Shown in pieces: positions 793 to 50,735 of a stretch of DNA of 52,455 bases (the first letter of the stretch is position 1; each line of letters starts with the position of its first letter). This stretch comes from an uncultured Cellvibrionaceae bacterium (lineage in GTDB: Bacteria > Pseudomonadota > Gammaproteobacteria > Pseudomonadales > Cellvibrionaceae): positions 7,103-59,557 of the forward strand of contig CAYNST010000006.1 in the NCBI GenBank assembly GCA_964399955.1. Reading direction: 5' to 3'. Made by a program: the position numbers and the translations under genes. Below the pieces are notes generated by a model. The model saw nothing but the letters and a program-made list of their open reading frames with translations. It had not been told where the DNA came from and searched no databases.

Positions 793-1230
793 ATTGGAGC
801 TCCGTTTTTGTATTTTGTGGAGTGATATAAGCTGTTGCGGACTGCGAACATCACCGCGCTCTGTAGGAACGCCGTATCTACCGCTGGATGCAAACCTCAC
901 GGGTTGCCGGTTTCACAACAATGTGCGCGTCTTGTGAGCCAAAAACTCACCCGGATTGCCGCACATTGGCGGCTCCGAAACCAGTTAAAAGTTTTGTTAC
1001 CGGTATATACGGCTGAGGCTGAGATTCGGCCCAGTGGTGGGCTTGCAGACAAGGAACAGCGCCAGTCGGCTGGCGGCAGATTGTGGCAGGCTATTGCGGC
1101 CGAAGGGCTACCAACAGCTGGTTTTATGGCAGAAACAGGTCAACGGGGCTGGTGGGTCAAGATAAATTGCTTTGCCGCTTGGCAAACGCCTTGGCGGCAA
1201 AGCTACGGACATGGGGGACTGCGTCCGGCC

Positions 1231-2797: not shown

Positions 2798-2973
2798 GTT
2801 GCTAGCCCGTGTCCGGCGCGCCGGTCATGTTCTAAAGGCAGTAGCCCAGGCTGGGCTGTCACCTGAAGCTCCTGCGTTTGACCCTGCGGCTGTCAAACAC
2901 GCCGCAGCCGTCGCCGGCCCCTTCTCCGCGTGATAAAGTGCCGCCTTTCCGCGCCGAAGCAGACGAGTCTCCC

Positions 2974-3699
2974 ATGACCTATTGCCTTGCCATAAGAATG
3001 AATTCCGGGTTGGTGTTTGCCGGTGACACGCGCACCAACGCCGGCGTGGACCGGGTGGCCACCTATCGCAAGCTGTACACCTTTGGCAACGGCACCAGCC
3101 ACGCTTTGGTTCTGATGAGCTCCGGCAACCTGGCCACCACCCAGGCGTTGGTGGAGACGGTCAGCCGCTCGGTTGCCGATAGCAGTGGGCTGTTCAGTGA
3201 GAAATCGCTGTACGACTGCGCCCAGCGCGTGGGGCAGTTCCTGGTGGATATCATCCGCCGCGGGTCGGAGCAGTCCATCAACAAGGGCATCGACTTTGGC
3301 TCCAACATTATTCTGGGCGGGCAGATCAAGGGCGAGGCGCCGCGCCTGTTCCACATTTATCCCCAGGGCAATTTCATTGAAGCCAGTGTTGAAACACCGT
3401 TTCTGCAGATAGGTGAGGAAAAATACGGCAAGCCGATTCTGGACCGCATCATCAAACCGGATACCGCGATAGACCAGGCCTTGACCTGCGCGCTGCTGTC
3501 CATTGATTCCACCATGAAGAGCAATTTAACGGTGGATATGCCGCTGGACATATTGCTGTACCAAAATGACACGTTCGACCTGTCCCAGGCGCGCCGCATA
3601 GAGCGCGACGACCAGGACTTTCTGGCGTTGCGCAAATACTGGGGCGAAGGCCTGCACCGACTGATTCACGAGTTTCCACCGCTCAAGGTGCCGCAATGA
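2974..3699 (+). CDS. proteasome-type Ntn-hydrolase, Anbu-like (ancestral beta-subunit homologue)
   Basis: Starts MTYCLAIRMNSGLVFAGDTR: Thr directly after Met, GxxxD motif and about 240 aa, as in the Anbu/HslV/proteasome beta family. The stop overlaps the tlyA start (ATGA at 3696). Confidence 0.7.
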   Translation: MTYCLAIRMNSGLVFAGDTRTNAGVDRVATYRKLYTFGNGTSHALVLMSSGNLATTQALVETVSRSVADSSGLFSEKSLYDCAQRVGQFLVDIIRRGSEQSINKGIDFGSNIILGGQIKGEAPRLFHIYPQGNFIEASVETPFLQIGEEKYGKPILDRIIKPDTAIDQALTCALLSIDSTMKSNLTVDMPLDILLYQNDTFDLSQARRIERDDQDFLALRKYWGEGLHRLIHEFPPLKVPQ

Positions 3700-11900: not shown

Positions 11901-14180
11901 CTGCCCGCGTTGCAGCAAGTGGACCTGCTGCGCTTTGAGCCGGCTGCCCGCGCTTTGGCGCAGGTGTTCTGGTGCGCAATCAGCGGCCCCGCAGCAGCAC
12001 CGTCCGGCAGTTGGCTGGAGCGGGCACAATCCGCTTTGGAGTTAAAGGGCATGTTTGGCGATGCTGCGGCGGCGGACGGCCTGGCCCAGGAGATAGACAC
12101 GACGCTACAGGTTTTTTTGGATCAACACCCGCTACCGGTGCAAGCGGCGGAGATACAGCAGGCGGCGGCCTATCTGGTGGAGGAGTTGGGCCGTGAGCAG
12201 CTGGAGTTTGTGAGCAGTCACTATGCGCAGGAGCTTGCGGATACGCTGGTCTCGTCTGTAGGCGCAACCCGCTGGCGGCGTTTGCAGGCGACGCTTGAGT
12301 CACTGGAGTCCTCACCCGCGCTCGCCTGGCAGCTCTGCAGCAACTGGCTGCAGGGACTGGTGCAGAACAAAGGCCTGCAGCAGCTTGCGCGCTACCTTCC
12401 CGAGGCGTGTGCCTTACTCACTACCGGGCCGCGTCTATCCCGCCGCGCAACAGAGGTGGACCTGGATCTTACTATCAGTGGACTGATGGGGCAGCACGCC
12501 ACGCTTGCGGATCAACAGTTGCGCATCTCCGTTGACGGCTTCCTGGCCCGCCTGCAACGCCACAGGCAGGAGTTTGTGCCGGCTTACAAACACTACCTGC
12601 AATTGCGCCACGAACTGCTTGAGCGCCAGCGCAGGGCGTTGAGGCTGCACGAGTTCAAGGCTCGCCCTCTCAGCTCCTTTGTGCGCAACCGGCTGATCAA
12701 CGAGGCCTATTTGCCCATCATTGGCGACAACTTCGCCAAGCAGATGGGCACGGCCGGTGAGACCAAGCGCTCGGACCTGATGGGACTGCTGATGCTGATC
12801 TCGCCGCCCGGCTACGGCAAAACCACGCTGATGGAATACGTCGCGCACCGCTTGGGCCTGATTTTCATGAAAATCAACTGCCCCTCGCTGGGCCACGAGG
12901 TGACCTCCCTCGACCCGGCCAAAGCGCCCAACAGCACGGCGCAACAGGAGTTGATCAAGCTGAACCTGGCGCTGGAGATGGGCGACAACGTGATGCTTTA
13001 CCTGGACGACATTCAGCACACGGATCCAGAGTTCCTGCAGAAGTTTATCTCACTGTGTGACGGCACCCGGCGCATAGAAGGCGTGTGGCAGGGGCAGAGT
13101 AAAACCTACGACCTGCGTGGCAGAAAGTTCTGCGTGGTCATGGCGGGCAACCCCTATACCGAGTCTGGCGCTGTATTCAAGATTCCGGACATGCTGGCCA
13201 ACCGTGCCGATATCTACAACCTGGGCGATATCCTGGGCGGCATGGAAGAGCCCTTTGCCTTGAGCTACATCGAAAACGGTCTCACCTCCAACGCCGTGCT
13301 GGCACCGCTGGCAACGCGGGACATTGAAGACGTCTACCGGTTTGTGAAAATGGCGCAGGGTGAATCTGTCGCCACCACGGATATGAGCCACGCTTACTCC
13401 AGTGCGGAGGCGAGTGAAATTGTCGGCGTTCTGCAAAAGCTGTTTGCCATTCGCGATGTGGTGCTCAAGGTCAACCAGCAGTATATTCAGTCCGCAGCTC
13501 AGGCGGACCGCTACCGCGTAGAGCCGCCCTTCCGCCTGCAGGGCAGCTACCGCAACATGAACAAGATGGCAGAGAAGGTGCAGGCGGTGATGAACGCGGC
13601 AGAGCTTGAGCAGTTAATTGCCGACCACTATGTGGGCGAAGCGCAGCTTCTGACCACCGGTGCGGAAGAAAACCTGCTGAAGCTGGGTGAGCTGCGCGGC
13701 AGCCTAAGCCAGCAGCAACAGGCGCGCTGGCAGCAAATTAAAGCCGATTTTTTACGCAACAAAGCCATGGGTGGGGACGAGGGCGATGCCGGCCAAAAAA
13801 TAGCCGCGCAGCTGACAGATCTGGTCGCGGGCCTGCAGCACCTTGCAACAAGTGCGGCCAGTTGGACGCAATCCAAAGACCGTACAGAACAGAATCAGGC
13901 CAGTATGCTCACGCAGTTGAAGCAGATTGTTGACGCCGCCCGGCCAGAGGTCAAGGTCATCAACCAGCCGGTTCCCGGGCTGGACACCTTGCTGCAGAAG
14001 CTCACCGACTCCATTGAAAACAGTCTGTACCCCATTGTGCGCAGCATGGACAAAAAGCTGGAGATAGACCTGCGCACCCATTACAAAATGAAAGATATCT
14101 CCCAGCAGTTGGCGGATATCGAACAAAAAATTCAACAGGAACTGGCCGAGCAACGTAGGACTCCACCTGAGGCAAACTGA
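8925..14180 (+). CDS. giant (1751 aa) protein with a C-terminal AAA_5 (MoxR/dynein-related) ATPase domain; function unknown
   Basis: Single uninterrupted ORF with an AAGGGA ribosome-binding site. Walker A LISPPGYGKTTL (~nt 12800), Walker B VMLYLDDIQH (~12996) and VVMAGNPYTESG...ANRADIY (~13140) match the AAA_5 pattern (hhhDEIN / hhh-NP). The N-terminal ~450 aa is non-repetitive. The central ~800 aa is Leu/Gln/Ala/Arg-rich and predicted helical. Confidence 0.85.
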   Translation: MAVIDPDSTQVDQAVAEGGAYEVITKRLTEQGTALRACAAALNQARQQEFGSSEMAVIARVRVRTENNCSPRDIVQVGEHLLFGYNVFIGLKSETEVADVLALFKLQVQGDETDILPVPQADTFLDEPQFVKDFQELYRYYKQTRLLQLRVKDGKLLAAFQIGERLTDTRVFRWSISADGKVIRYIDNRGERDIQLPSAFDFEWHKTSRDQVVNGKHPHVNILDELFVETVGGDLTVKVENNTASGRGIYHEPVDDATQSIDDAEFHYAEVGSLILLKILPYRETAWRYLVFNKLTQEVRRIDAIGSSCVQLPEDHGIVFPGGYYLQTGQYKTFDESSAEMLFKRVIRSPNGEDVLYVFYEPTSGTVGLFAYNLIKKNLQNPLYGDGYALADDGTLVIFVAQEEPTRVHPMQVWRTPFCSDEFASLEPPRQNFFGRIGNAELVRGISDLYAVGRIIDNQSVTLRLYEELQRVALKVFDDHYWIEAEETADAPGLLRTIAQTAELAIDEFEKVQSIRQQSQRALDAASTEQGLLLDSVRAAGWDTAEEYVLALDRIRNQRGHLATIRQYRYINTSKIDALDAVLLEAQHHLSARTLEFLSDEQALLPYLEKIEYFNQAIAATETVAELLPLKEEIQLTAGGLDLLSELLSTLKAGDATERTRIIDAISEVYARLNQSKAQAQHRQNQMGSREAVAQFSAQFKLFSQSITNALGQANTPEACDEQMSRLLIQLEELEGQFADHEQFLSDIVTKREEVFDVFEAHKQRLLDERGRRAQAIFDAGQRVLGSIERRSQKFIEPDPLNTFFAADPLVLKIREFVEQLHQLDNSVKADDLDARLKGLRDQASRALRDKRELFEEGGAVARLGPRHRFNVNTQELDLTLLARNGQLVYHLTGTQYYQPVDEPELERLKPFWSVALASESAEVYRAEFLADEILHAARAQRDGLSLDGLHQALLQGAQLDKLVRDFAAPRYQEGYEKGIHDHDAALILKALLPALQQVDLLRFEPAARALAQVFWCAISGPAAAPSGSWLERAQSALELKGMFGDAAAADGLAQEIDTTLQVFLDQHPLPVQAAEIQQAAAYLVEELGREQLEFVSSHYAQELADTLVSSVGATRWRRLQATLESLESSPALAWQLCSNWLQGLVQNKGLQQLARYLPEACALLTTGPRLSRRATEVDLDLTISGLMGQHATLADQQLRISVDGFLARLQRHRQEFVPAYKHYLQLRHELLERQRRALRLHEFKARPLSSFVRNRLINEAYLPIIGDNFAKQMGTAGETKRSDLMGLLMLISPPGYGKTTLMEYVAHRLGLIFMKINCPSLGHEVTSLDPAKAPNSTAQQELIKLNLALEMGDNVMLYLDDIQHTDPEFLQKFISLCDGTRRIEGVWQGQSKTYDLRGRKFCVVMAGNPYTESGAVFKIPDMLANRADIYNLGDILGGMEEPFALSYIENGLTSNAVLAPLATRDIEDVYRFVKMAQGESVATTDMSHAYSSAEASEIVGVLQKLFAIRDVVLKVNQQYIQSAAQADRYRVEPPFRLQGSYRNMNKMAEKVQAVMNAAELEQLIADHYVGEAQLLTTGAEENLLKLGELRGSLSQQQQARWQQIKADFLRNKAMGGDEGDAGQKIAAQLTDLVAGLQHLATSAASWTQSKDRTEQNQASMLTQLKQIVDAARPEVKVINQPVPGLDTLLQKLTDSIENSLYPIVRSMDKKLEIDLRTHYKMKDISQQLADIEQKIQQELAEQRRTPPEAN

Positions 14181-30238: not shown

Positions 30239-31678
30239 TTACAAGACTCCCGTCTGCGTCAGTTCGGTAACCAGTTCCAGCTCAGTTACCGTTTGGTCTG
30301 TCTGGTAGTGGGGCACCAGGTGCACCACGCAGGCGTAGTGTCCGGGTTTGCCGGGGTGTTCGCGCACCTTGACTTGAGCCTCGCGCAAGGGGTAGCGCGC
30401 TTGAGCTTCCCAGTCCAAGTCGTCGCGCGCAGTAGTGTATTTAAACAGCCAGTCGCGCAGGTATTTTTCGCAGTCCAAAGCACTTAAAAACGAGCCGATT
30501 TTATCGCGAATCATCACTTTGATGTAGTGCGCAATGCGCGAAGCGCACAGGACATGCTGCATCATTGCCGCCAGCTTGGCGTCCAGGTTGGCGCGGGCGT
30601 TGGCCGAATGTTTGATCATGTGCACCGAGGAGTTGCTGTAGAAGGCCGCCCAGGGCGTGCCGTAGCACTGGCACAAAGGAATAAACCCCAGGTTGCTGAT
30701 GTCGCGCTCGATGGAGTCGGTAATCACCACATCGGTGGCCGGTTTATAGGCCGTCTCTGCCGGGTCGGTGGCAAATGCATCACTGGGCAGGTTGGTGACC
30801 AGCCCTCCGCCCACCTGATCACGCGGCACGCCGCGGATATGACCAAACCAGCCGACCGCAGCAAACTCCCGTATCAACAGCCCGCCAAAAGCGTAACAGG
30901 CGTTGCCCCAGAGGTAGCTGGAGCGGCGCGTTTTTTCGTAAAAAAATAAACCTTTGTAACTGCCGGGCTGTGTTCTGTAGGGCCTGCGCATCAGGGTGCG
31001 CGGCAGGGTCAGGCCCACAAAACGTGCGTCCGGTCGGGCGCGCAGGGCGCGCCAGCGCAGGTATTCGGTCTGCGCAAAGATGCTTTGCAGGTCGATGGGC
31101 AAACGCAGGTCGGCGAAGCGGTCCAAGCCGAACAATTCGCTCGACGCCCCGCTGATAAAAGGCGCAAAAGCGGCTGCGGCAATTTGCGACAGCCCTTCCA
31201 GTGCTGCCAGGTCGTCGTGGGGATGATTGGCCGAAATTTTATGGCTGATGGTGTAATCACCCAGCAGTGCGCCGTAGGGTTCTCCACCCGGTAAACCGTA
31301 TTCTTCGTTGTAGATTTTGTTGAACAGCTGACTTTGGTCAAATTCGAGTGAACGGCTCAAATCCTTGACCACTTCTGTCCAGGTTATGTCCAGCACCTTG
31401 AGCTTGATGTTCTTGCTGGCGTCGCTTTGCAGGGCCAAATACCAGAGCCCACGCCAGGAAGCTTCCAAAGCCTGGAACCGGGGGTGGTGAATAATGGCGT
31501 TCAACTGGTCGTTGATTTGATGATCGATGGCGCTGATCAGGTGCGCGACGGTGTTGCGCAGTTCATCCACACTTCTGCGAGACGCGTTGTCGGCCTGCTT
31601 GGATGGCAATGCAGTGGGTCCGGTGGCGGCGTGTTCTGCGTCAACGGGGGAGGAATTTTTGACGATGGCAACGTCCAT
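30239..31678 (-). CDS. tssC: T6SS sheath large-subunit paralogue (TssC-like, second copy)
   Basis: 479 aa. Shares blocks with the adjacent TssC (LEFDQSQLFNKIYNEEYGLPGGEPYGALLGDY; RFVGLTLPRTLMRRPY; C-terminal [14 protein letters not shown]) but is clearly divergent. Confidence 0.85.
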   Translation of the reverse strand: MDVAIVKNSSPVDAEHAATGPTALPSKQADNASRRSVDELRNTVAHLISAIDHQINDQLNAIIHHPRFQALEASWRGLWYLALQSDASKNIKLKVLDITWTEVVKDLSRSLEFDQSQLFNKIYNEEYGLPGGEPYGALLGDYTISHKISANHPHDDLAALEGLSQIAAAAFAPFISGASSELFGLDRFADLRLPIDLQSIFAQTEYLRWRALRARPDARFVGLTLPRTLMRRPYRTQPGSYKGLFFYEKTRRSSYLWGNACYAFGGLLIREFAAVGWFGHIRGVPRDQVGGGLVTNLPSDAFATDPAETAYKPATDVVITDSIERDISNLGFIPLCQCYGTPWAAFYSNSSVHMIKHSANARANLDAKLAAMMQHVLCASRIAHYIKVMIRDKIGSFLSALDCEKYLRDWLFKYTTARDDLDWEAQARYPLREAQVKVREHPGKPGHYACVVHLVPHYQTDQTVTELELVTELTQTGVL

Positions 31679-31745: not shown

Positions 31746-33239
31746 TTAACCCGCTTTGGGGATGTTGGCTACCAGGCGCAAGGAAGCTGTCAGCTCTTCC
31801 ATTTGCAACCAGGGGCGCATCCAGGCAACCGCGCTGTAAACGCCGGGTTGACCCGGTACTTCTTTGACTTCTACCCGGGCTTCGCGCAGCGGGTAACGGG
31901 CTTTCATCTCGGCGCTGGCGCCGGGGCTGCCGTTAACGTACTGGTTGATCCATCGGTTGAGCCAGGCTTCCGCTTCGTCGGCTTCCATGAAGGTGCCAAT
32001 TTTGTCGCGCGCCATCACTTTGAGGAAGTGCGCAATGCGAGCCGTGGCCATAACGTAGGGCAGGCGCGAAGAAATTGCCGCATTGGCGGTGGCGTCCGGG
32101 TCGCCAAATTTCTTCGGTTTCTGCGTGGTCTGTGAGCCAAAAAACACGGCGTAATCGGTGTTTTTGTAATGGCACAACGGCAGAAAGCCCAATTTGCTCA
32201 GCTCGGCTTCTCGGCGATCAGTGATGCCGATTTCCGTAGGGCACTTCTGGTGCAGGTCGCCGTCGTCACTGACAAAGGTATGGCTGGGAAGGCCTTTGAC
32301 CTTGCCGCCGCCTTCCGCACCGCGAATGCTGGTGCACCAGCCGTATTCGGCAAAGGACGCGGAAATCACGCTGCCCATGGCATAGGCGGCGTTCATCCAG
32401 CAGTAATCGTCATGCTCTGCAGAGGCAGGCGTGCCATCGGAATTGAGGTCAATTTCTTCAAAATCAAACTCTTCGATGGTTTTGGTCATTTTGCCGTAAG
32501 GCGCGCGAGCGAGGACGCGCGGCATGGTCAGGGCGACAAAGCGAGAATCTTCGGTCTCGCGGAAGGAGCGCCACTGAATGTACTCTGCCGAGTCGAAGAT
32601 CTTTTCCAGGTCACGCGGTTTGGACAGTTCTGTAAAACTGTCGAACCCAAACATTTGCGGAGCGGAAGCCGAAATGAAAGGGCAGAAGCCGGCGGCAGCC
32701 ACGTTGGAGATTTTGCCCAACAAAGAGATATCTTCCGGGTGGGAGGAAAATTCATAGTCGCCGATCAAAGCTGCGTAGGGCTCGCCACCGGCGGTGCCAA
32801 ACTCGCTTTCGTAGATTTTTTTGAATATCTGGCTCTGGTCAAATTCCACGGCCTTTTCCAGGTCCCGCGACAATTCTTTTTTGCTGATATTCATCATGCG
32901 AATCTTCAGGCCGGAGCCGGATTCGCTGTTGCTGACCAGATGGTGCAGGCCGCGCCAGGAGCCTTCCAGTTTTTTGAAGCTGTCCTGATGCATAATGGCC
33001 GCCAACTGTTTGGACATCTTGCTGTCGATGGCGGCAATGGCGCGGTTGATGGTGATGGACAAATTTTTGTCCCAGGTCACGGTGCCTTCCAGTGCCTGCT
33101 CAACCACGGTTTTCAAGAGAGCTTGCGCTTCATCGCGCGGGGTCTGGCGGGTGGCGCCTATGGCCTGTTCCAGCAGGCTGGCTTCTTCTACAACAGCGCC
33201 TGCTTCTGCGCCTTCAAGTAAGGTTTCTTCCTTAGCCAT
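31746..33239 (-). CDS. tssC: T6SS contractile sheath large subunit TssC (VipB)
   Basis: 497 aa with canonical blocks [49 protein letters not shown] and [14 protein letters not shown]. Confidence 0.9.
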
Positions 33240-35371: not shown

Positions 35372-36775
35372 ATGGCAGTCAAGTTACACCTCGTTAAATA
35401 CCCGCCGGATGTGGCACCCGCGCAGCTCAGCACCCAGTTTGGCGCCGAGGGCGGTGTCATCGGCCGTGGCATGGACACCGACTGGGTGTTGGCCGATCCG
35501 CGCCGCTTTCTGTCGTCCAATCATTGCAGAATTGCCCGGGAAGCCGACCGCTACCTGTTGACGGATCTGAGCACCAATGGCACCTATCTGAACGGCGCGT
35601 CCAGCCCTCTCGGCCGTGGCGCACAGGCGGCTCTTGCCGACGGCGATGTCATTGACATGGGTGACTATCAGATCAAGGTCTCCATCGTTGCGCAGGATTG
35701 CGGCTATCCGCAACTGCCGTTTGAAGACGCCAAACCCGCGCCGCAACCGTCCGCCGCCTTTGATTCCTTTTCGGCCGACGATCCATTCTCCACGCCCTTT
35801 GCCGATGTCATGCCCGGCTCGCTGTCCACCGCAGATCCGCTCCTGGCACTGGGGCAGCCGTTTGATGGCAACAGGACCGATGCGCGGGAGGAGACGCCCG
35901 CTCAGTTCGCAACCGACTCCCTGCTCGACGCAGATCCTTTGAGTGAATCTTTTGATTGGCCGGTTGCGCGTGCTCCCGCGTCCGGACTGCCCGACGACTG
36001 GGGGGACGATATCAGCATTCTTGGGCAGAAACCCGGCCCGGCGGCGCCCTACGCTTTGGATGAAGACGACGCCCTGATTGCAAGGCAACCGGCAGTTGTC
36101 GCGCCAGAGCCCGAGCTTATTCCGCCACCCTCGCCCCGAACCCACGCCGGTGCCGCGTCGGTCAATCCCGATCTGCTGCTACAGGCGCTGGGCCTGGATG
36201 AGGCAGCATTCAATGCCCGTGAGGTTGCCGACCTGCAACTTGCAGTGGGTGAAATGGTAAGAGAGAGCCTGGCAGGCATGATGCAGGTGTTGCGCTCGCG
36301 CGCCAGCATCAAAAACGAATTTCGCATGAGCATCACCACCATTCAGCCCATCGAAAACAACCCTATCAAGTTCTCCGCCAGTGTCGACGACGCTTTGCAA
36401 ACCATGTTTGTGCGCAAGAGTCCCGCCTACAAACCGCCGGTAGATGCTGTAAAAGACAGCTTTGATGCAATTGCCGACCATCAGATTGCGGTCATTGCTG
36501 GAATCCGCTCCGCCTTTCGGGCGCTGCTGACCCGCTTTGACCCGGCGCTGCTGGAGGAAAATTTCAAGCAGGCCGGCAAGGACAGTGTTCTGCGCGGTAT
36601 TGGCAAGGGTAAATATTGGAGTGCCTACGAGGACCATTATCAGAGCGTGGTGGACAACATGGAGCGGTCTTTCCAGGAGTTGTTTGGCGATGACTTTGTG
36701 CAGGCCTACGAAGACCAACTGGGTAAGCTGGCTCGTGCGCGGCGGCAAAACAAAAACGGTCAGGGTAAAGTTTGA
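35372..36775 (+). CDS. tagH: FHA-domain protein TagH (Fha), T6SS post-translational regulator
   Basis: N-terminal FHA domain (GRGMDTDWVLADPRRFLSSNHCRIAREADRYLLTDLSTNGTYLNG), a Pro/Ala-rich linker, and a TagH-type C-terminal domain. Confidence 0.85.
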   Translation: MAVKLHLVKYPPDVAPAQLSTQFGAEGGVIGRGMDTDWVLADPRRFLSSNHCRIAREADRYLLTDLSTNGTYLNGASSPLGRGAQAALADGDVIDMGDYQIKVSIVAQDCGYPQLPFEDAKPAPQPSAAFDSFSADDPFSTPFADVMPGSLSTADPLLALGQPFDGNRTDAREETPAQFATDSLLDADPLSESFDWPVARAPASGLPDDWGDDISILGQKPGPAAPYALDEDDALIARQPAVVAPEPELIPPPSPRTHAGAASVNPDLLLQALGLDEAAFNAREVADLQLAVGEMVRESLAGMMQVLRSRASIKNEFRMSITTIQPIENNPIKFSASVDDALQTMFVRKSPAYKPPVDAVKDSFDAIADHQIAVIAGIRSAFRALLTRFDPALLEENFKQAGKDSVLRGIGKGKYWSAYEDHYQSVVDNMERSFQELFGDDFVQAYEDQLGKLARARRQNKNGQGKV

Positions 36776-42700: not shown

Positions 42701-43240
42701 CAGGCCCGCGGCGGCTGGCGCAACCGGGTAGTGGACCACTACAGCCTGGGCTTCTCCGGCGAATTTCTGGAGCAGATGCGCCGCGCGCAGAGCATCAAGG
42801 ACAGCCTTTATCTAGAAAGCCCGGACACTATCAGCCTGACCATGCAGCTGCGGCCCAAGACCATGGATGCGCGGGATGCACGCTTTCATCTGGACATTGG
42901 CGGCGAGCGCCTGTCCTACAACCACGGCCCCAAATTCTGGCAGACGCTGAAGTGGCGGGCCGATCAGGAGAACATGCGGGTGCGCATCGCCTTTGAAGAT
43001 GTGGGCGGCACCCAGTACGACCGCAGTTTTTTTGGCCCCTGGGCCTGGTTCCGCATGCTGGACGCTTCCTACGTGGAAAAAACCGCGCAGTCAGCCACCT
43101 ATTTATTGACCTTCCTGGCCTCCGCCAGCGGTGGCGAGAGTGACCCGCACAAGATCATTTATGAAGTGAAGGCCAACAGCATTGACAACCCCCTGCGACG
43201 GGACCTGTTGAGCGGCTATCACTGCCCCGAGTCAATCTGA
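39704..43240 (+). CDS. tssM: T6SS membrane complex protein TssM (IcmF)
   Basis: 1178 aa; N-terminal TM helices, Walker A GPPGSGKTTAL, and the large IcmF-related periplasmic domain. Confidence 0.93.
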   Translation: MKRFFAFITHPLMLSAIGLLALGLLIWFVGPQIKFGEHNRAPLGSERARLLSIIVLLAIWGLHNFWMHYRGVRANRALVAGLHDDAEPSAAQDPNMSESERAQISAQFERAINTLKRYKFKGARGSKALYQLPWYVIIGPPGSGKTTALINSGLEFPLAKETGGHAVQGIGGTRNCDWWFTNEAVLIDTAGRYTTQDSHRVQDGGAWQGFLDLLKRHRRRRPINGAIVAISLQDLLTQTEHERKQHARAVRERLDELMSKLNIRFPVYVVLTKTDLVSGFTEFFAEFSRDEREQVWGVSLPASTKDDCVQAVQLVAGELEQLTQRLYTRLFARLHQERDGRRRTAIAAFPQQFENAQAQAVSFVQQVFALDHYKQQPLLRGVYFTSGVQDGTAVDRLMSAVSGNFGFGRQLNHSAESSGKSFFLTQLFREVIFPEADLVGSNPVYERTAVWLRRASYAAMALLTVGLGVFWSGELVRHQSYLSAVSAEVQNYRSQPAGAEQPAEATLLALPALDALAQAAQIGEHLKPTAAWRFGLSDPRVDDSAIAAYRQQLRERLLPQLVSTLGQAVERSQDSLLYDNFRVYMMLGKPEYLSPERVSDWFDEHWQSAWALEADTRSRLAFHLDNLLKLPLQPQVLDTDLVQDTRDRLLAEPTAQRVYSRLRAHPMYSRRVDMLSQFGNNARRAFRLDAEARARLQVPLLFTKEGYDHVDLSARSPLLADLLSETWVLVDAGTPEETLVDMSEVPAQVEALYMADYIRVWSDLYRQLGVVEFTSLQHGKDILAALADPAYSPLVAVLRVGRNNTQLRPPKDQLEALAAKAPPRGGRAAKLAVGAALNQYEGTPVDNRFADLNGLFGDSGGVGTVLDQIGQLHAYLADITFAPEPPQQAFEEARKRFSGGGGNAITALQSFASTAPEPLRGWLDDLARQSWKVVLGAARRHAADEWRESVYLPYSRTLQGRYPLNRNATDEATLYAFSEFFKPGGTLDQYYQDYMAPFVQARGGWRNRVVDHYSLGFSGEFLEQMRRAQSIKDSLYLESPDTISLTMQLRPKTMDARDARFHLDIGGERLSYNHGPKFWQTLKWRADQENMRVRIAFEDVGGTQYDRSFFGPWAWFRMLDASYVEKTAQSATYLLTFLASASGGESDPHKIIYEVKANSIDNPLRRDLLSGYHCPESI

Positions 43241-43977
43241 TGGACAACTCTGTAGGAATTCTTGGCAAATTGCCAATGCACGGCGATTTCGTACAGCGCA
43301 ACCTGCCGGGGCCGGTGATCAACCTCTGGCACGAGTGGCTGCAGGACTTTGTTGGCAGCACGCAGGAGCAACTGGCGGATGCCTGGCTGGACATCTACCT
43401 GACCTCGCCCATCTGGCGGTTTTACCTGTCCCCGGGCGTCATCGACAGTCGTCCCTGGGCCGGCATTTTGCTACCCAGTGTGGACCGCGTCGGCCGCTAC
43501 TTTCCGCTGCTGCTGACCCGCCCCCTGCCGGCAGACACCCTGGCCACCGTTTTCATTGAGCAGCAGCACGACTGGTTCCGTGCCCTGGAAGACGCCGCAC
43601 TGGCGGCGTTGGACGGGCAGATGAACGTTGACGGCTTGTTGAGCCGGGTAGCCGAGCTGCCAATGCCGGCCCCTGAACTTGCGGCCTGGCAACTTAAGGT
43701 GCCGCTGCGCCAGGGCTTGGTGGTGGAGCAGCACGAAGAGGCAAAAGGCGTGTCTGGCTCGCCCCAGCCACGGCTGTTGCAGGCTTTGATCAATCAATCG
43801 TTCCCCAGTTACAGCCTCTGGAGCACCGAGGGTTCGGTGCGGGTGGAGCCCTGTTGCGTCATCAGCGGCGGGCTGCCGCCGCTGGGACAGGCCCCGGCCC
43901 TGTTGGACGGCCTGTGGGAACATTGGCAATGGAGCGCACCCTTTGCGGTGTCGGAAAGGAATCTGAAGGCAGAATAA
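43240..43977 (+). CDS. tagF: T6SS-associated protein TagF
   Basis: N-terminus GILGKLPMHGDFVQRNLP...W..W, as in the TagF/DUF2094 family. Start overlaps the tssM stop. Confidence 0.85.
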   Translation: MDNSVGILGKLPMHGDFVQRNLPGPVINLWHEWLQDFVGSTQEQLADAWLDIYLTSPIWRFYLSPGVIDSRPWAGILLPSVDRVGRYFPLLLTRPLPADTLATVFIEQQHDWFRALEDAALAALDGQMNVDGLLSRVAELPMPAPELAAWQLKVPLRQGLVVEQHEEAKGVSGSPQPRLLQALINQSFPSYSLWSTEGSVRVEPCCVISGGLPPLGQAPALLDGLWEHWQWSAPFAVSERNLKAE

Positions 43978-43980
43978 TTC

Positions 43981-44769
43981 ATGGAAAGTGTAACAAAGGA
44001 CGACACCTGCAGGCGCCCAAGAGTGTGGACCTGCAGCGCCAAGAGTGATCGTGGTAAGGTAAGACAAATCAACGAAGATGCCTTCCTGGCCCGGGACGAC
44101 ATTGGCCTGTGGGCGGTGGCGGACGGCATGGGCGGGCACAGTATTGGCGATGTGGCCAGCCGCATGATCATTGACGCCCTCGCCCCGGCCACCGCAGAGC
44201 CGCGCCTGAGTGCGCTGGTGGAGAGTGTCGAAGAGCGGCTGTTGCAGGCCAACAACGACATCATTCAGTATTCACGTACGCTGTTTGAAAAAGACGCCAG
44301 CATGGGCAGCACCTTGGTCAGCCTGGTGCTGAAGGGGCAGGTGGGTGCGTGTCTGTGGGTGGGGGATTCCCGGCTATACCGCTGGCGCAAGCAGCATCTC
44401 ACCCAGCTCACCCGCGACCACAGCCAGGTGCAGGAGCTTATAGATCGCGGCCTGCTGGACCCGACAAAGGCCCGGCAGCACCCGCAGGCCAACGTCATCA
44501 CCCGGGCAATTGGTGCGGATACCGGCTGCTTAATTGACCTGAACGTCTTCAATGCGCAGCCCGGCGATGTGTTTCTGTTGTGCAGCGACGGTCTTTCCAA
44601 TACTGTTCCGCCCGACGAGCTGGGGCGGCTGCTGCCGTTGGGCAGCGCGGAAGAGGCGGCCTGTGCTTTGCTGGACTCAGCCTTGGCACGCGGCGCGCCG
44701 GATAACGTCACCTTGATTGTCGTCAAAACCGCCTTCGGGCCCGCCCCTGTGGCGGTGCAGGCTCCCTGA
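43981..44769 (+). CDS. pppA: PP2C-type Ser/Thr phosphatase PppA
   Basis: FLARDDIGLWAVADGMGGHSIGDVAS plus C-terminal GAPDNVTLIVV; the usual T6SS threonine-phosphorylation-pathway partner of PpkA. Confidence 0.88.
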   Translation: MESVTKDDTCRRPRVWTCSAKSDRGKVRQINEDAFLARDDIGLWAVADGMGGHSIGDVASRMIIDALAPATAEPRLSALVESVEERLLQANNDIIQYSRTLFEKDASMGSTLVSLVLKGQVGACLWVGDSRLYRWRKQHLTQLTRDHSQVQELIDRGLLDPTKARQHPQANVITRAIGADTGCLIDLNVFNAQPGDVFLLCSDGLSNTVPPDELGRLLPLGSAEEAACALLDSALARGAPDNVTLIVVKTAFGPAPVAVQAP

Positions 44770-44819: not shown

Positions 44820-47390
44820 ATGATCGACCCGGATCACAACAAAACCCGCCTGGTGAAACCCAAGGGTAACACCGTGCATGCCGATGAGCAGGCACCTACC
44901 CAGGTTGAGCGCGGTGCAGACAGCAAAAAAACCGGGCCCGGCCGCCGCAACGACGCCACCGTGCTGGATGGCCGCGTCAGTCCCACGCAAATGGCCGAAG
45001 GTGCGCCCACTCAGGCGTTCGGCTCTGCAGCCGCAGGTGCGGGCGCTGGCGGTGCCATGCCGGAGATTCTCAAAAACCGCTTCATTCTGGAGCGGGTACT
45101 GGGCGCCGGTGGCATGGGGGTGGTCTACAAAGCCAAGGATCTTTTAAAGGTAGAGGCGCAGGACCGCGAGCCCTACGTGGCCATCAAGGTGCTGGGGGAG
45201 GAGTTCCGCTCCCACCCGGAGGCGTTCATTGCCCTGCAGCGGGAATCCCGCAAAACCCAGCGCATTGCCCACCCCAACATTGTGACCGTCTACGATTTTG
45301 ACAAAGACGGCGACACGGTCTTCATGACCATGGAATACCTGGAAGGCGCGCCGCTTGACCGGCTGATCAAGCAGTATCGCGCCACCGGGCTGCCCCACCG
45401 GGATGTGTGGCAGATCCTCAACGGTATCTGCGCGGCCCTGGCCTACGCCCACCAGCAGAACATCGTGCACGCCGACCTGAAGCCCGGCAATATTTTTGTG
45501 ACCGGGCACAACCTGGCCAAGGTGTTTGATTTTGGCATTGCCCGCGCCGTTGCCCAGGCCGATGTGCTGGAGCCCACTGACGCGCAAAAAACCGGTTTTG
45601 TGCTGGCGGGCGCCCGCAAGGGCGCCGACCACACGGTATTTGATGCAGCCACTCTGGGCGCCTACACCCCAGCCTACGCCAGCCTGGAGATGCTGCAGGG
45701 CGCGCCGCCGGATGTGCGTGACGACATCTACGCGCTGGGTTGCATTGCCTATGAAATGCTCACCGGGCGTCACCCCTATCAGCGCAAGAACGCAGCCGAG
45801 GTTTACAGCGAAGGCCTGCGGCCGGCGCGCATTTCCGGCATTAGCAGCAATCAGTGGCGGGCCATTGAGAGTGCATTGGCCGTCAAGCGCGGGGCTCGGT
45901 TGCCGTCCGTGCCTGCCTTTCAGGCGCTGATCAGTCAGCCGGTCAGTCGGTCCTACCGGGGCTGGTTGCTGGCCGCACTGCTGGCCGCCGGTGCGGGTGG
46001 GGCGGGGTGGTTCCAGTGGCAGCAACGCGAACTGCCCCCGCCGGTGCCGCCGGTGTCCGAAAATGACGTGCGGGTGGAGATAGAACAGCGCATTCGGGTA
46101 GAGCTGGTGCAAAACACCATTAACGCACTGCTGGCGGAGCCCAGCTTTGACGAGCGTTGGCAGGATCTGCTGTGGAACGAAATGCAGAACCTGCACGCGC
46201 TGGTAGGGGAAACCGGCGAGCCGGTACCGGAGCTCAACCGGCAGATTCTGCAGCTTTACGTGCAGCAGGCCGAAGCTATGCTTGAGGAGCAGGCCTTTGA
46301 GCGCGTGGCGCAATTGCTGCAGCGCGCCGAGGTTTACCAGGCAGAGCCGGACGAGCTGCAAGCTTTAAACGATCGGCTGCAGGCGGCCATTGCACAACAG
46401 ACCGCCGAGGAAGCCGAAGCGCGCGCTGCCCGCCAGCAGCAGGAGGCGCGCCGGCAGGAAGCGCGCCAGCGGCAGCAGAACGAACAGGCCTACGCCGCCG
46501 CACTGGACAACGTCAATGAACAATTGAGCTGTAAAACACCGGTCGCCATGGAAGACCTGGCCATCGCGGTCAAGCGCCTGCAGGCGGTCAACGCCCAGGC
46601 TTACAGTGTTGCGGAGAACAGCATTGTCCAGCGGCTGGCGGGTTGTATTCGCACCCTGGCCACCGCGCAGCCGGAGCGCGCCCGCGTGCTGCAGCAGGAA
46701 GCGCTGGCACTGTTCGGCAACCACCGAGAGCTGCAGGGCATCACCATCGCCGAAAAAGACCCCTGCAGCCCCAAACTTGCAGGGCTTGGCGCACGCAACA
46801 AGGGCGCCAGGTGTCAGGACAGCTGGGCCGGCGGCGGCCGTGGACCGCAGCTGGTGGTGATCCCCAAGTCGCCGCAGTTGGCAAGCTTTGCCATTGGCCG
46901 CTACGAAGTCAGCGTGGAGGACTTTAACGAATACTGCAGCGCCGCCGCCAACTGCCGGCCGCTGGCAGGCGACCCCACTCTGCCGGCCACCGGGTTGTCG
47001 GTTCAGCAAATTCAGGCTTACCTGCAGTGGCTGAGCGAGCGCAGCGGCCACACTTATCGCTTGCCCAGTCGCGAGGAATGGCAATACGCGGCGCGCGCCA
47101 ACAGCCAGAACCTGCCGTCCAATCGCATTTGCCAGCTGAACACCCGCGGGCTGCAAATTGGCGGCGCACTGGTGGCGGTCAATCTGGGCCAGCAAAACCC
47201 CTGGGGGCTGATCAACTCCGTCGGCAATGCGCGCGAGTGGGTGCAGGCAGGCGCAAGCCACCGCGCCATGGGCGGCTCCTTCGCCACACCCATGGACGAG
47301 TGCTCGGTTGCCACAGAACATCAGCCGAACGCGCAGGGCGACGGCGAAACCGGCTTCCGTGTGGCGCGTGAGCTTGCTGGCGTGCAGTAA
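44820..47390 (+). CDS. ppkA: Ser/Thr protein kinase PpkA with a TM segment and a C-terminal FGE-sulfatase-like domain
   Basis: Hanks kinase motifs (GAGGMGVVYKA, HADLKPGNIFV, DIYALGCIAYEMLTG). TM segment GWLLAALLAAGAGGAGWF. The C-terminal ~170 aa (46870-47390) carry FGE/SUMF1-type motifs RLPSREEWQYAAR and NPWGLINSVGNAREWV. Confidence 0.88.
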   Translation: MIDPDHNKTRLVKPKGNTVHADEQAPTQVERGADSKKTGPGRRNDATVLDGRVSPTQMAEGAPTQAFGSAAAGAGAGGAMPEILKNRFILERVLGAGGMGVVYKAKDLLKVEAQDREPYVAIKVLGEEFRSHPEAFIALQRESRKTQRIAHPNIVTVYDFDKDGDTVFMTMEYLEGAPLDRLIKQYRATGLPHRDVWQILNGICAALAYAHQQNIVHADLKPGNIFVTGHNLAKVFDFGIARAVAQADVLEPTDAQKTGFVLAGARKGADHTVFDAATLGAYTPAYASLEMLQGAPPDVRDDIYALGCIAYEMLTGRHPYQRKNAAEVYSEGLRPARISGISSNQWRAIESALAVKRGARLPSVPAFQALISQPVSRSYRGWLLAALLAAGAGGAGWFQWQQRELPPPVPPVSENDVRVEIEQRIRVELVQNTINALLAEPSFDERWQDLLWNEMQNLHALVGETGEPVPELNRQILQLYVQQAEAMLEEQAFERVAQLLQRAEVYQAEPDELQALNDRLQAAIAQQTAEEAEARAARQQQEARRQEARQRQQNEQAYAAALDNVNEQLSCKTPVAMEDLAIAVKRLQAVNAQAYSVAENSIVQRLAGCIRTLATAQPERARVLQQEALALFGNHRELQGITIAEKDPCSPKLAGLGARNKGARCQDSWAGGGRGPQLVVIPKSPQLASFAIGRYEVSVEDFNEYCSAAANCRPLAGDPTLPATGLSVQQIQAYLQWLSERSGHTYRLPSREEWQYAARANSQNLPSNRICQLNTRGLQIGGALVAVNLGQQNPWGLINSVGNAREWVQAGASHRAMGGSFATPMDECSVATEHQPNAQGDGETGFRVARELAGVQ

Positions 47391-47626: not shown

Positions 47627-47887
47627 ATGAACGACATTAATTTTTCCGCGCTTTTGCGCAATCTGGTGGACGCCTATGCGGACCAGCGCATCAGCCGTGT
47701 ACAATACCTTACTCAACGCCGCAGCCTGCTGGACCGCATTGACCGGGAATTCAACGGCGCGGCACCCGAACCCGAACCCTGCTCCGAGCAAGATGATGCC
47801 GACGTTACCTGCCCTGTTGCAGGTTTCCGCCGCGAGTCAGCCGACGCGTCTGTCCAGGTTCACCAATCCAGTAATAACCAACAGTAA
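47627..47887 (+). CDS. small hypothetical protein (86 aa) heading the exbB operon
   Basis: AAGGATG-like ribosome-binding site and protein-like composition (MNDINFSALLRNLVDAYADQRISRVQYLTQRR...). No recognisable family. Confidence 0.4.
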   Translation: MNDINFSALLRNLVDAYADQRISRVQYLTQRRSLLDRIDREFNGAAPEPEPCSEQDDADVTCPVAGFRRESADASVQVHQSSNNQQ

Positions 47888-47946: not shown

Positions 47947-48567
47947 ATGTTTGTTGTTGAATTTTTTCAGTCCGGCGGGCCATTCATGTACGCCATTCTG
48001 GCGGTGTTTGCCCTGGGCTTTGCCATTGCCGTAGAGCGCTACGTGGTGATCTCGGCAACCCAGGTAAAAACCCGCAGCGTCTGGCGCAAGCTCACCCCCA
48101 TGCTGCGCGCCAAGGATGTCATGCGAGCAGAAATGTTGCTGCAAAGCCAGACCACGCCTTTGGCCCGGGTGCTGCATTACGGCTTTGCCAAACTGCAAAA
48201 AAATGCTAAACGCGAGGCGGTGGAATCCGCCATGGAAGAGGGCATCATGGAGGTGCTGCCCGAGCTGGAAGTGCGCACCCACTACCTGGCAACGCTTGCC
48301 AACATTGCCACCCTGCTGGGGCTGCTGGGCACCATCATCGGCCTGATTCAGGCATTTACCGCCGTCGCCAGTGCCGACCCGGCAGAAAAGGCCGACCTGC
48401 TCTCGGCCAGTATTTCCGTGGCCATGAACACCACCGCCTTCGGCTTGATCGCCGCTATCCCGCTTATTTTGATTCACTCGGTACTGGCCACCAAAACCAC
48501 CCGTCTGGTGGACCAAATAGAAATGGCCACGGTGAAATGCCTGAATTTGGTGACTGACGATCAGTAG
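47947..48567 (+). CDS. exbB: MotA/TolQ/ExbB family proton-channel protein
   Basis: 206 aa, 3 TM helices; C-terminal MNTTAFGLIAAIPLILIHSVLATK typical of ExbB/TolQ. Confidence 0.82.
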   Translation: MFVVEFFQSGGPFMYAILAVFALGFAIAVERYVVISATQVKTRSVWRKLTPMLRAKDVMRAEMLLQSQTTPLARVLHYGFAKLQKNAKREAVESAMEEGIMEVLPELEVRTHYLATLANIATLLGLLGTIIGLIQAFTAVASADPAEKADLLSASISVAMNTTAFGLIAAIPLILIHSVLATKTTRLVDQIEMATVKCLNLVTDDQ

Positions 48568-48579
48568 GCTGAATAACTC

Positions 48580-49164
48580 ATGAAACTGCGTCGCAGAAAA
48601 ATGCTGCAAGAGACTGCGGAGCTGAACATCACCGCGTTTTTGAACCTGATGGTGATCCTGGTTCCCTTCCTGCTGATCACTGCGGTTTTCTCGCGCATGA
48701 CCGTGCTGGAGCTGAATCTACCGGGCCTGGGTGAATCCGCCGCCGGTGATGAAGCGCCGGTCAAGCTGGAGCTGCAACTCTTGCTCTACCCGGACAACCT
48801 GCAACTTCGCGATGCCAATATGGGCCGCATTCGCGAATTTGCCATCGAGGACGAAACCATCAACTGGCGCCCAATCGTGGAGGTGTTGCTGGAGATAAAA
48901 CGTCGCTTTCCCGAGGAGCAGGAAATAGCCCTGCTGCTGGACCGCGCCGTGCCCTACAGATTATTGATCGAGGTCATGGACCATGTGCGCAGTGCACAAA
49001 TAGTGAATTTTGCCGCGCTGGAAGAAGTGGAGCTGTTTCCGTCGGTGTCGGTGGGGGATGCGCCGCCGGCGGGTGAGCAGCCGGACGAAGATGTGAGCCT
49101 GGACGCCCTGCCCGGCGCGCAAATTCCTGCCGAAGACGGCGAGGAGACAACGGATGCAAACTAA
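48580..49164 (+). CDS. exbD: ExbD/TolR family biopolymer transport protein
   Basis: N-terminal EL.NITAFLNLMVILVPFLLI TM of ExbD type plus a periplasmic domain. Confidence 0.82.
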   Translation: MKLRRRKMLQETAELNITAFLNLMVILVPFLLITAVFSRMTVLELNLPGLGESAAGDEAPVKLELQLLLYPDNLQLRDANMGRIREFAIEDETINWRPIVEVLLEIKRRFPEEQEIALLLDRAVPYRLLIEVMDHVRSAQIVNFAALEEVELFPSVSVGDAPPAGEQPDEDVSLDALPGAQIPAEDGEETTDAN

Positions 49165-49660
49165 ATCCCGCCGCGCACGGCGCATGGAGCGGCACCATCT
49201 GATGCGCAAGGGTTCGTCACTGAATCTGGTGTCGCTGATGGATATTTTCACCATCCTGGTATTTTTCCTGTTGGTGAATTCCTCCAACGCGCCGCAGTTG
49301 CCGGATCAAAAAGATCTGCAACTGCCCACCTCCATTGCCCAGGCCACGCCCAGGGAAACCCTGCTGCTGGCGGTGACCCCGGAAAGCCTGTTGTTGCAGG
49401 GCCGGCTGATTGCGCCGGTGGCTGAATTGCTGGAAGACGAAGAAGACATTATTGGCCCGCTGCTGCAGGCGCTGGAAAACCGCCAGGCGCCCGCCCAGGA
49501 CGATACCGGCGAAGAGCGCGGCCGGGCCATCACCATCATGGCGGATGAAAACCTGCCCTACGATCTGGTGCGCAAAATATTGGCCACCTGCCAGCAGGCG
49601 GGTTTCACTGAGATAGCCTTCGCTGCGCACCAGAAGGCCAGGCCCACAACAGCGGAATAA
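49154..49660 (+). CDS. exbD: second ExbD/TolR family protein
   Basis: SLNLVSLMDIFTILVFFLLV TM plus a periplasmic domain. Overlaps the previous gene by 11 nt. Confidence 0.82.
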   Translation: MQTKSRRARRMERHHLMRKGSSLNLVSLMDIFTILVFFLLVNSSNAPQLPDQKDLQLPTSIAQATPRETLLLAVTPESLLLQGRLIAPVAELLEDEEDIIGPLLQALENRQAPAQDDTGEERGRAITIMADENLPYDLVRKILATCQQAGFTEIAFAAHQKARPTTAE

Positions 49661-49757: not shown

Positions 49758-50735
49758 ATGACTGAGGGGACTAAACGCGCAATGCAGCCGGCAAGCTACG
49801 CCCAATTGGCCACCCACTGGCAGCCCGGGCAAAACAACAGCCGCGTGTTCTATATTCTGGCCACCCTGCTGGTGTTGCTGGCGCTGGCGGCGGGCATGGT
49901 ATTGTCGCGCATGCCTCTGCCCGAGCAGCCCGACGCCGGCCCCACCAAGGTGCCGGAGCGGGTTGCGCGTTTCATCGCGCAAAAAGAACAGCCGCCACCG
50001 CCGCCACCTCCACCGCCCCCGCGCGCGCAACCCAAGCCCGCCGAGCCCACACCCCGGCCGGAAGCGCCCCGCGTGGTGCGCCCGCGCGAGGAACCCAAGC
50101 GGGAGCCGCTCACCGACAGCCAGGCTCGCGCCCGGGAAAAAGCCGCCACCACCGGCCTGCTGGCACTGTCCAACGAGCTCAGCGAGCTGCGCGACACCAG
50201 CGCCGTGAGCGCCCAGGTCAACCGCAACCTGCGCAGCCGCGACGGCGACCGCCAGGCCGCCAGCCACAACGCCGAGCGCCTGACGCAAAACATTGAGCGC
50301 GGCAGCGACGGCGTGGACGCCAGCCAATATGCAACCGTGGCCGGCAGCAGCGAACTGGCGGCCCACGACAGCGCCGAGGTGGACGCCGCCCTGGCCGCAC
50401 GGGCAGGCGCGGATGGCCCCGCCGGAGACGCAGGCGCGCGCAATGACCGCGCCCGCTCCCAGGAAGAAATCACCCTGGTCATCGACCGCCACAAAAGCCA
50501 GCTGCAGTCCCTTTACAACCGCGCCCGCCGCAGCAACGCCAGCCTGCGCGGCAAACTGGTGCTCGCCATCACCATCGCCCCCGACGGCCGGGTCACCCAA
50601 GTGGAGGTGGTCAGCAGTGAGCTGAACGACAAGGCCCTGGAGGCAAGCCTGGCCGCCCGCGTGCGCAGCTTCCAGTTTGGCGCCAAGGATGTGCAGACGG
50701 TGACGGTCAATTACCCCATTGAATTTCTGCCCTAG
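49758..50735 (+). CDS. tonB: TonB family energy-transducer (Pro-rich spacer plus C-terminal TonB domain)
   Basis: N-terminal TM (VFYILATLLVLLALAAG), a P10 run and Pro/Glu/Lys-rich spacer, and a C-terminal TonB-C-like domain (LRGKLVLAITIAPDGRVTQVEVVSS...VTVNYPIEF). Confidence 0.78.
   Translation: MTEGTKRAMQPASYAQLATHWQPGQNNSRVFYILATLLVLLALAAGMVLSRMPLPEQPDAGPTKVPERVARFIAQKEQPPPPPPPPPPRAQPKPAEPTPRPEAPRVVRPREEPKREPLTDSQARAREKAATTGLLALSNELSELRDTSAVSAQVNRNLRSRDGDRQAASHNAERLTQNIERGSDGVDASQYATVAGSSELAAHDSAEVDAALAARAGADGPAGDAGARNDRARSQEEITLVIDRHKSQLQSLYNRARRSNASLRGKLVLAITIAPDGRVTQVEVVSSELNDKALEASLAARVRSFQFGAKDVQTVTVNYPIEFLP

Follow-up and report, generated by a model that had tools for sequence, protein, structure and literature searches.

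The periplasmic activator of PpkA, a type VI secretion system (T6SS) kinase, in Pseudomonas aeruginosa is TagR, a member of COG1262 (PMC13584744). TagR (PA0071) is annotated as an FGE-sulfatase domain-containing protein (PMC7253367), named after the formylglycine-generating enzyme (FGE), and its proposed target is the periplasmic domain of PpkA (PMC6082577). The partner differs in other bacteria: Serratia marcescens uses RtkS (PMC6082577), whereas Acidovorax citrulli uses TssW, an outer-membrane protein that positions PpkA, which behaves as a structural component there (PMC12607579). For Teredinibacter turnerae, a locus with 17 of 22 HSI-I genes in common was described, in which the kinase TERTU_1640 has a periplasmic extension unlike that of P. 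aeruginosa PpkA, 'as is typical in T6S kinases' (Yang et al., 2009; PMC2699552). Here, the ppkA/tagE gene of a T6SS cluster from an uncultured Cellvibrionaceae bacterium was analyzed, located on a stretch of 52,455 nucleotides of contig CAYNST010000006.1 (the window). The open reading frame (ORF) encodes 856 amino acids (aa) and fuses, in one gene, a kinase with a C-terminal head that contains an FGE-fold domain.

The plus strand of the window carries the genes fha-tssJ-tssK-tssL-tssM-tagF-pppA-ppkA in this order, while clpV, tssG, tssF, tssE, two tandem tssC genes, tssB and tssA are located on the minus strand; hcp and vgrG are found farther upstream. The order from fha to ppkA was also identified in more than 30 related loci and in Pseudomonas. 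Since this gene order is that of the corresponding arm of the P. aeruginosa H1-T6SS, the window kinase is PpkA/TagE of the threonine phosphorylation pathway of an H1-like T6SS. This is in agreement with the initial annotation, which had named the protein a T6SS PpkA. The similarity to P. aeruginosa PpkA (PA0074, TagE) comprises the Hanks kinase, the single transmembrane (TM) segment, a C-terminal region predicted to be periplasmic, the place in the operon and the partners Fha, PppA and TagF. In contrast, P. aeruginosa PpkA has a von Willebrand A (vWA) domain where the window protein has a helical stalk and the FGE head, the catalytic loop is HRD instead of HAD, and no tagQRST genes follow in the window.

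Two domains were identified by Pfam in the 856-aa protein, namely Pkinase (aa 90-338, 5.5e-40) and FGE-sulfatase (PF03781, aa 684-810) with an E-value of 4.6e-13 and 49.8 bits (curated cut-off 23.3), the latter match covering only profile positions 31-191 of 255. VWA families were not matched (Pfam, E<=0.01), and the layout of a Hanks kinase followed by one TM segment and no vWA domain was thus correctly described before. The kinase motifs G-loop (LGAGGMGVVY in the window protein), VAIK, H-x-D-x-K-P-x-N (here HADLKPGN) and DFG can be read in the sequence and are kept in the orthologues. With H-A-D-L-K-P-G-N at aa 207-214 (45438-45461), the catalytic loop is that of a non-RD kinase; the orthologues likewise lack the catalytic-loop Arg (H.D.KPGN). 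Both sequences that had been quoted as motifs of the FGE/SUMF1 fold were found, GHTYRLPSREEWQYAAR at aa 743-759 (47046-47096) and NPWGLINSVGNAREWV at aa 793-808 (47196-47243). The FGE-like module is indeed located at the C-terminus, but the range of about aa 690-856 given for it was too narrow. With the fold beginning near aa 665 (46812), the domain comprises about 190 aa; the conserved module reaches back to aa 557 (46488), so that the conserved head corresponds to the last 300 aa.

The head was modelled with AlphaFold2 (AF2; aa 557-856), yielding a predicted local distance difference test (pLDDT) value of 90 and a predicted template modelling (pTM) score of 0.82. The model consists of a four-helix subdomain (H2-12, H21-34, H36-60 and H62-76 in this run, pLDDT about 90) followed by a mixed alpha/beta domain. 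A Foldseek comparison of the head model with the PDB resulted in 46 matches with E<1e-3, all of which (46 of 46) belong to the FGE superfamily, including ToxD, PvdO, human and bacterial FGE, pFGE, PorK, CarF, CalU17 and EgtB/OvoA. The nearest solved relatives by sequence are ToxD (7spq), PvdO (5hha) and PorK/GldK, and a profile built from 18 orthologues matched PvdO with 9.7e-11 and ToxD with 2.1e-9 among the PDB sequences. Searching the PDB with only the C-terminal 66 residues, in order to align them residue by residue with a true FGE, gave nothing useful. The second AF2 run (aa 378-856) yielded the TM helix, stalk helices at aa 414-439, 445-462, 469-489 and 493-506, and a helix of 59 residues at aa 510-568, followed by the head's helical subdomain. 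The pLDDT exceeded 90 for about aa 417-647; the stalk was modelled well in this run and the FGE part poorly, the alignment being shallow there. The FGE-fold domain in the C-terminus of PpkA, which the initial annotation had expected as PF03781, is confirmed far beyond chance, and the identification of the protein as a T6SS PpkA with an FGE-fold domain is considered highly probable.

The most hydrophobic 19-mer of PpkA (Kyte-Doolittle) is found at aa 381-399, right after the kinase domain. Most of the 26 orthologues analyzed have a single strong hydrophobic segment about 125-145 residues past DFG, and Lys and Arg are richer N-terminal to the TM segment (ten orthologues). All eight Cys residues past the TM helix are conserved in 100% of the 26 orthologues, whereas the cytoplasmic part contains one or two Cys in most orthologues, which are poorly conserved, one of them not at all. 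This is the pattern predicted by an oxidising periplasm. The window PpkA is predicted to be a single-pass protein with a periplasmic C-terminal part, as had been assumed from the beginning; in Acidovorax PpkA, the periplasmic location of the C-terminus was shown by PhoA fusions (PMC12607579). The identity across the 26 orthologues amounts to about 70% for the kinase, 25% for the TM segment and stalk, 38% for the helical subdomain and 46% for the FGE domain. The conserved unit is aa 557-856.

In FGE, two active-site cysteines hold copper, which are C336 and C341 in the human enzyme (positions taken from PDB mutant entry names). The corresponding C-terminal segment of PpkA is GGSFATPMDEC with C828 as the lone Cys, and the position of the first Cys is occupied by T, D, Q or S in the alignment of 18 orthologues. 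The two Cys five residues apart (Cys-x4-Cys) that characterize FGE proper are therefore not found in the PpkA head. Neither a DinB domain nor the His triad of the EgtB/OvoA type was detected in PpkA by Pfam. The motif N-x-x-G-x-A-x-E at aa 797-804 is invariant in the same alignment, and it may match a structural Ca2+ site of FGE. Because the catalytic Cys pair is absent and the eight periplasmic Cys are invariant, the FGE-fold domain of PpkA is most likely a non-catalytic binding module. With respect to the question of catalysis or binding, raised with the initial annotation, this favors a binding-only domain.

Such a role would not be unusual for the fold. PvdO, ToxD, PorK/GldK and Tsi3, the best matches by sequence or structure, lack the FGE catalytic residues as well, and several of them bind or scaffold: the immunity protein Tsi3 acts through effector binding, and PorK is a ring component of the type IX secretion system (T9SS) with a structural role. 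In contrast to the window protein, these are stand-alone proteins of pyoverdine or toxoflavin synthesis, the T9SS ring or T6SS immunity, and none of them is fused to a kinase.

The complete module of kinase, stalk and head was found in one frame and in a common gene order in about 29 metagenome loci (metagenome contig scan). An exhaustive search with a full-length profile of 748 positions resulted in end-to-end matches from about 40 clusters at 50% identity; kinases dominate the global counts of this search, so the end-to-end matches alone are informative. A public contig reached via the neighbouring exbB gene (L208) encodes an identical 856-aa product, obtained by an independent gene call and with precomputed Pkinase and FGE-sulfatase annotation. 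The same cluster is present in the cultured species T. turnerae and Thalassocella blandensis and on contigs with an ExbB identical to that of Saccharophagus sp. K07 and of Agarilytica rhodophyticola. The T. turnerae protein is 45% identical to the window PpkA end to end. TERTU_1640 is a true orthologue, including the head and all cysteines, and lies in the same neighbourhood, whereas its description mentions the extension only and not the FGE fold (PMC2699552). The fused PpkA is the normal form in Cellvibrionaceae-type gammaproteobacteria.

The architecture of kinase, TM segment and C-terminal FGE-sulfatase domain also corresponds to one of the three described for the 'Proteo1' family in an atlas of bacterial serine/threonine kinases (bSTK), which are TM only, FGE-sulfatase and DUF4384 (bioRxiv 10.1101/2025.01.12.632604). 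By its architecture, the window PpkA is a candidate member of this group, and the same three architectures occur among the closest relatives of the window kinase. In contrast to the present locus, the preprint text found draws no link to T6SS, PpkA or TagR. The nearest relatives of the head itself are the C-terminal FGE domains of multidomain signalling proteins, i.e. fusions with kinase, PP2C, caspase-like, TIR and cyclase domains. A protein of Balneatrix alpica with kinase and FGE domains (P0030) was considered in this context and set aside, as it is not T6SS-linked.

The initial annotation had argued that a sensor fold other than the vWA domain implies a different activating cue for this T6SS. 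However, TagR of Pseudomonas, the activator in the paradigm system, itself matches PF03781 (7.8e-27, Pfam). The FGE fold is therefore already part of the known pathway, and a different cue is not justified by the fold. Periplasmic divergence of the kinase was likewise established before for T. turnerae (PMC2699552), for Serratia with RtkS and for Acidovorax with TssW. The cue may still differ in the window, since tagQRST is absent and the head does not appear to be a TagR orthologue. TagR resembles the head in the PF03781 fold, in its placement at the periplasmic side of PpkA and in the absence of cysteines of the catalytic pair, its FGE active-site segment having no cysteines. It differs in being a free secreted protein or lipoprotein that works with TagQ, TagS and TagT.

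For the comparison with TagR, a published peptide was back-translated and genomes were scanned, resulting in 84 full-length Pseudomonas TagR sequences. The TagR ORF of P. paraeruginosa holds both published TagR peptides and adjoins a gene with the TagQ peptides. An FGE match of P. aeruginosa labelled 'plasmid' turned out to be PvdO. Two FGE-only proteins of 570-750 aa (P0004 and P0011), which scored best against both the head and TagR, were rejected, as they are not encoded in T6SS clusters; they occur in arrays of FGE paralogues or beside a TonB-dependent receptor. The vWA domain of a Pseudomonas PpkA, that of P. salmasensis (L020:5240-6739, minus strand), is marginal in Pfam, with VWA_2 at E = 0.006, below the cut-off, and a weak VWA_4 match; no sequence relative of this domain was found in the PDB.

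As a whole, these observations are probably best explained by the FGE head being a non-enzymatic periplasmic binding input of PpkA. The protein would be oriented N-in, with the kinase domain facing the cytoplasm, where the substrate Fha as well as PppA and TagF act. The helical stalk would carry a probably disulfide-stapled head, composed of the four-helix subdomain and the FGE/SUMF1-fold domain, and the latter would serve the kinase as its periplasmic input. If a partner or ligand in the periplasm or near the outer membrane binds to the head, the oligomerisation and activity of the kinase could change, and the altered activity would act via Fha phosphorylation on T6SS assembly. The head might functionally resemble a TagR supplied in cis, with the same fold, the same compartment and the same position upstream of the same kinase. 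A mechanism of this kind, with the head acting in cis and without catalysis, as an input to the kinase or as an anchor in the periplasm, is considered reasonably likely. It would agree with RtkS and TssW in that the periplasmic domain or upstream partner of PpkA is lineage-specific; those are unrelated proteins acting in trans, whereas here the candidate input fold lies within the kinase polypeptide.

Several points weigh against this explanation. The TM segment of the window protein is only moderately hydrophobic (Kyte-Doolittle value 1.13), and hydropathy, the charge bias and the conserved cysteines are the only basis of the predicted topology. The invariant Cys828 could occupy the place of one catalytic cysteine, the Cys pair having been compared at the level of sequence, and a part in oxidation chemistry is still attributed to PvdO-like proteins that lack this pair. 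An orphan orthologue of 872 aa was found on a 318-kb contig (L142:8276-10894); neither T6SS genes nor pppA nor exbBD-tonB lie within about 8 kb of it. Finally, PpkA is a non-RD kinase with HAD in the catalytic loop; therefore, its control by activation-loop phosphorylation may differ from that of P. aeruginosa PpkA and of classical RD kinases.

Among the other explanations, an artificial fusion of adjacent ppkA and stand-alone FGE genes by sequencing or assembly error would agree with the public gene calls in two contigs (L003 and L004), in which a separate 'FGE-sulfatase' gene is called behind a short PpkA. Both copies are broken, however, by a frameshift at L003:11984 (a long-read contig with 6x coverage) and by an in-frame stop at L004:11341-11343 (a short-read assembly), and the homology runs through both breaks. 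Using tblastn, each was found to be one continuous, broken gene, and the two were rejected as an unfused ancestor. Neither of their 'FGE genes' encodes a signal peptide, and both have their start within the conserved module, while the ORF is uninterrupted in all 25 complete metagenome orthologues (25 of 25), in the assemblies of several cultured species and in the independent identical contig, leaving the artefact a negligible probability. Alternatively, the head could be a true TagR orthologue joined to PpkA in a Rosetta-stone manner and working exactly as TagR. Head and TagR have the Pfam family PF03781, the pathway and the compartment in common, tagR follows downstream of ppkA in Pseudomonas in the order ppkA-tagT (ABC_tran)-tagS (FtsX)-tagR (FGE-sulfatase)-tagQ (Gly-zipper lipoprotein), and the PpkA C-terminus is the sole TagR-like sequence in the window. 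Against the 84 TagR sequences, however, the head showed only 25-28% identity with an E-value of about 1e-5 (BLAST), and TagR ranked 124th or lower as a match of the head, behind PvdO and all 120 generic FGE proteins of the test set. The reciprocal search agreed with this, the best non-TagR matches of TagR being generic FGE proteins and the PpkA heads ranking 81st or lower; an HMM search likewise gave similarity at the superfamily level only. In addition, TagR, a protein of about 570 aa, has its own signal peptide and continues after the FGE domain with a helical C-terminal part of about 200 aa, whereas the head lacks both and ends at the FGE domain. No TagQ homologue was found in the window, and none of the annotated window ORFs is an ABC_tran or FtsX protein (TagS/TagT). 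A fused TagR is improbable given these results. The sequence comparisons rather indicate that head and TagR share fold and place, with the head outside the TagR family, and it seems that the T6SS kinase acquired its FGE fold independently of TagR, from another branch of the FGE superfamily.

The head could also be an active periplasmic oxidase or modifying enzyme like FGE, PvdO or ToxD, whose substrate turnover is coupled to the kinase. The best PDB relatives, ToxD and PvdO, are biosynthetic proteins, and both C828, near the FGE active-site segment, and the presumed Ca2+-site motif are invariant. Since the Cys-x4-Cys copper site as well as the DinB domain and the His triad of EgtB/OvoA are lacking, such an activity is nevertheless very improbable; the domain is also short for the 255-position profile, and catalysis by PvdO itself is not demonstrated. 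Closer to the explanation as a binding input, which it overlaps and does not exclude, is the view of the head as mainly a structural anchor or positioning device that would tether PpkA, and by way of PpkA also the membrane complex, to cell wall, outer membrane or the downstream TonB-like protein and would not sense a variable signal. The structural PpkA of Acidovorax, positioned by TssW (PMC12607579), and the FGE-fold protein PorK of the T9SS ring are examples of such functions, with its length, the helical stalk could reach across part of the periplasm, and the tonB-like gene is linked throughout, including the two loci without exbBD. The orphan orthologue, on the other hand, has neither T6SS genes nor tonB nearby. 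A purely anchoring role is possible but rather unlikely, and the binding input remains the preferred explanation.

The region downstream of ppkA contains a small ORF followed by exbB, two exbD genes and a tonB-like gene (Table 1). This arrangement was found after the fused ppkA in nearly all of the at least 30 syntenic loci (about 29 metagenome loci and the named genomes), and it holds the position of tagT-tagS-tagR-tagQ in Pseudomonas. All five ExbB orthologues sampled (73-100% identity) adjoin a fused ppkA, whereas the genes past tonB vary between divergent loci. Two loci keep the tonB-like gene without exbBD. In a Methylomicrobium T6SS cluster (L005) in which PpkA lacks the FGE head, exbBD-tonB genes were not found nearby (n=1). 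The orthologues of the small ORF are 80-117 aa long and have the N-terminal motif S..LR.L..Y...Y..R..LLD.ID..NG in common (six aligned); the ORF has no Pfam match and is called as a gene in five contigs (L208, L210, L212, L216 and L217).

Because of the linkage of this block to the fused ppkA and the variable flanks past tonB, i.e. by linkage only, it might be speculated that the TagQRST input was replaced by a trans-envelope device. This device would consist of the FGE head, the small protein and a dedicated ExbB-ExbD-ExbD-TonB-like system driven by the proton-motive force, and the TonB-like protein or an outer-membrane partner contacted by it would convey an envelope or contact signal to the head and switch the kinase on. 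We regard this idea as doubtful at present and propose it tentatively. In the literature, no description of a dedicated TonB system on the input side of a T6SS was found.

Table 1. Features of the ppkA/tagE region. Positions refer to the window; aa, amino acid positions in PpkA.
Feature	Position	aa	Strand	Evidence
fha/tagH, expected PpkA substrate	35372..36775		+	Pfam FHA and T6SS_FHA_C (6.5e-59)
tagF	43240..43977		+	Pfam TagF_N (8.4e-45)
pppA (PP2C phosphatase), antagonist of PpkA	43981..44769		+	Pfam PP2C_2, PP2C; NCBIfam Stp1_PP2C (3e-63)
ppkA/tagE, complete fused kinase-FGE gene	44820..47390		+	ORF; Pfam Pkinase and FGE-sulfatase; identical product on L208; 45% identity to T. turnerae orthologue
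Hanks Ser/Thr kinase domain, predicted cytoplasmic	45075..45854	86-345	+	Pfam, orthologue alignment, motifs
Single transmembrane helix	45960..46016	381-399	+	Top Kyte-Doolittle 19-mer; orthologue segment; AF2 helix
All-helical stalk, predicted periplasmic, poorly conserved (~25% identity)	46020..46487	401-556	+	AF2 (aa 378-856)
Helical subdomain and Cys-containing linker of the head (Cys571, 609, 649)	46488..46811	557-664	+	AF2; 38% identity
FGE/SUMF1-fold domain (Cys665, 706, 712, 771, 828), catalytic Cys pair absent	46812..47387	665-856	+	Pfam, PDB matches, Foldseek, 18-orthologue alignment
Small ORF of 86 aa, conserved and without Pfam family, always located between ppkA and exbB; tentative module member	47627..47887		+	6-orthologue alignment
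exbB of the ppkA-linked block (exbB to the tonB-like gene, as a whole a tentative module member)	47947-48567		+	Pfam, synteny
exbD (first)	48580-49164		+	Pfam, synteny
exbD (second)	49154-49660		+	Pfam, synteny
tonB-like gene	49758-50735		+	Pfam, synteny

Some further observations were made on the related loci. The neighbours of the orphan orthologue encode a hybrid histidine kinase, an MFS protein, Tex and an MCP-PilZ protein. In four contigs (L158, L159, L165 and L166) the loci adjoin a PP2C gene, and T6SS genes were not detected nearby. The automatic gene calls on L003 and L004 produce a false 'stand-alone FGE-sulfatase' gene in each case. Seven consecutive FGE-sulfatase paralogues are encoded on another contig (L215:1-16539), including a fusion of FGE-sulfatase with TonB_C, a kinase with FGE and a caspase-like protein with FGE, and three FGE genes lie beside a TonB-dependent receptor on L214.

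Within the window, the two tandem tssC genes on the minus strand (30239-31678 and 31746-33239) encode full-length TssC/VipB sheath proteins (479 and 497 aa), both of which contain the domains VipB and VipB_2. A protein of 1,751 aa with DUF3686 (3.2e-204), DUF7902 and a C-terminal AAA domain is encoded at 8925-14180, upstream of hcp and vgrG, with a DUF2059 gene on one side and a rhomboid gene on the other. At 2878-3699, a 273-aa member of the Proteasome subunit family (PF00227, 1.8e-9) is encoded, possibly a bacterial proteasome homologue of the Anbu type, which adjoins two ORFs without Pfam match.

The combination of kinase and FGE domain is already contained in precomputed Pfam annotations and in the kinase atlas, and the bare domain annotation is ordinary. 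In the literature, no paper linking a PpkA-borne FGE domain with TagR and no functional description of the kinase-FGE PpkA clade were found. Sensing by T6SS kinases is understood in a few species only, each with its own periplasmic partner (TagQRST, RtkS and TssW). Recruitment of the FGE fold to a T6SS kinase seems to have occurred on at least two occasions, giving TagR in trans and the head in cis in the clade of the window protein, and this would support the view that PpkA is acted on directly, from the periplasm, by TagR-like modules. The one-polypeptide version is carried by T. turnerae, which is cultivable, and the linkage to ExbBD-TonB provides a testable lead for a new type of signalling from the envelope to the T6SS.

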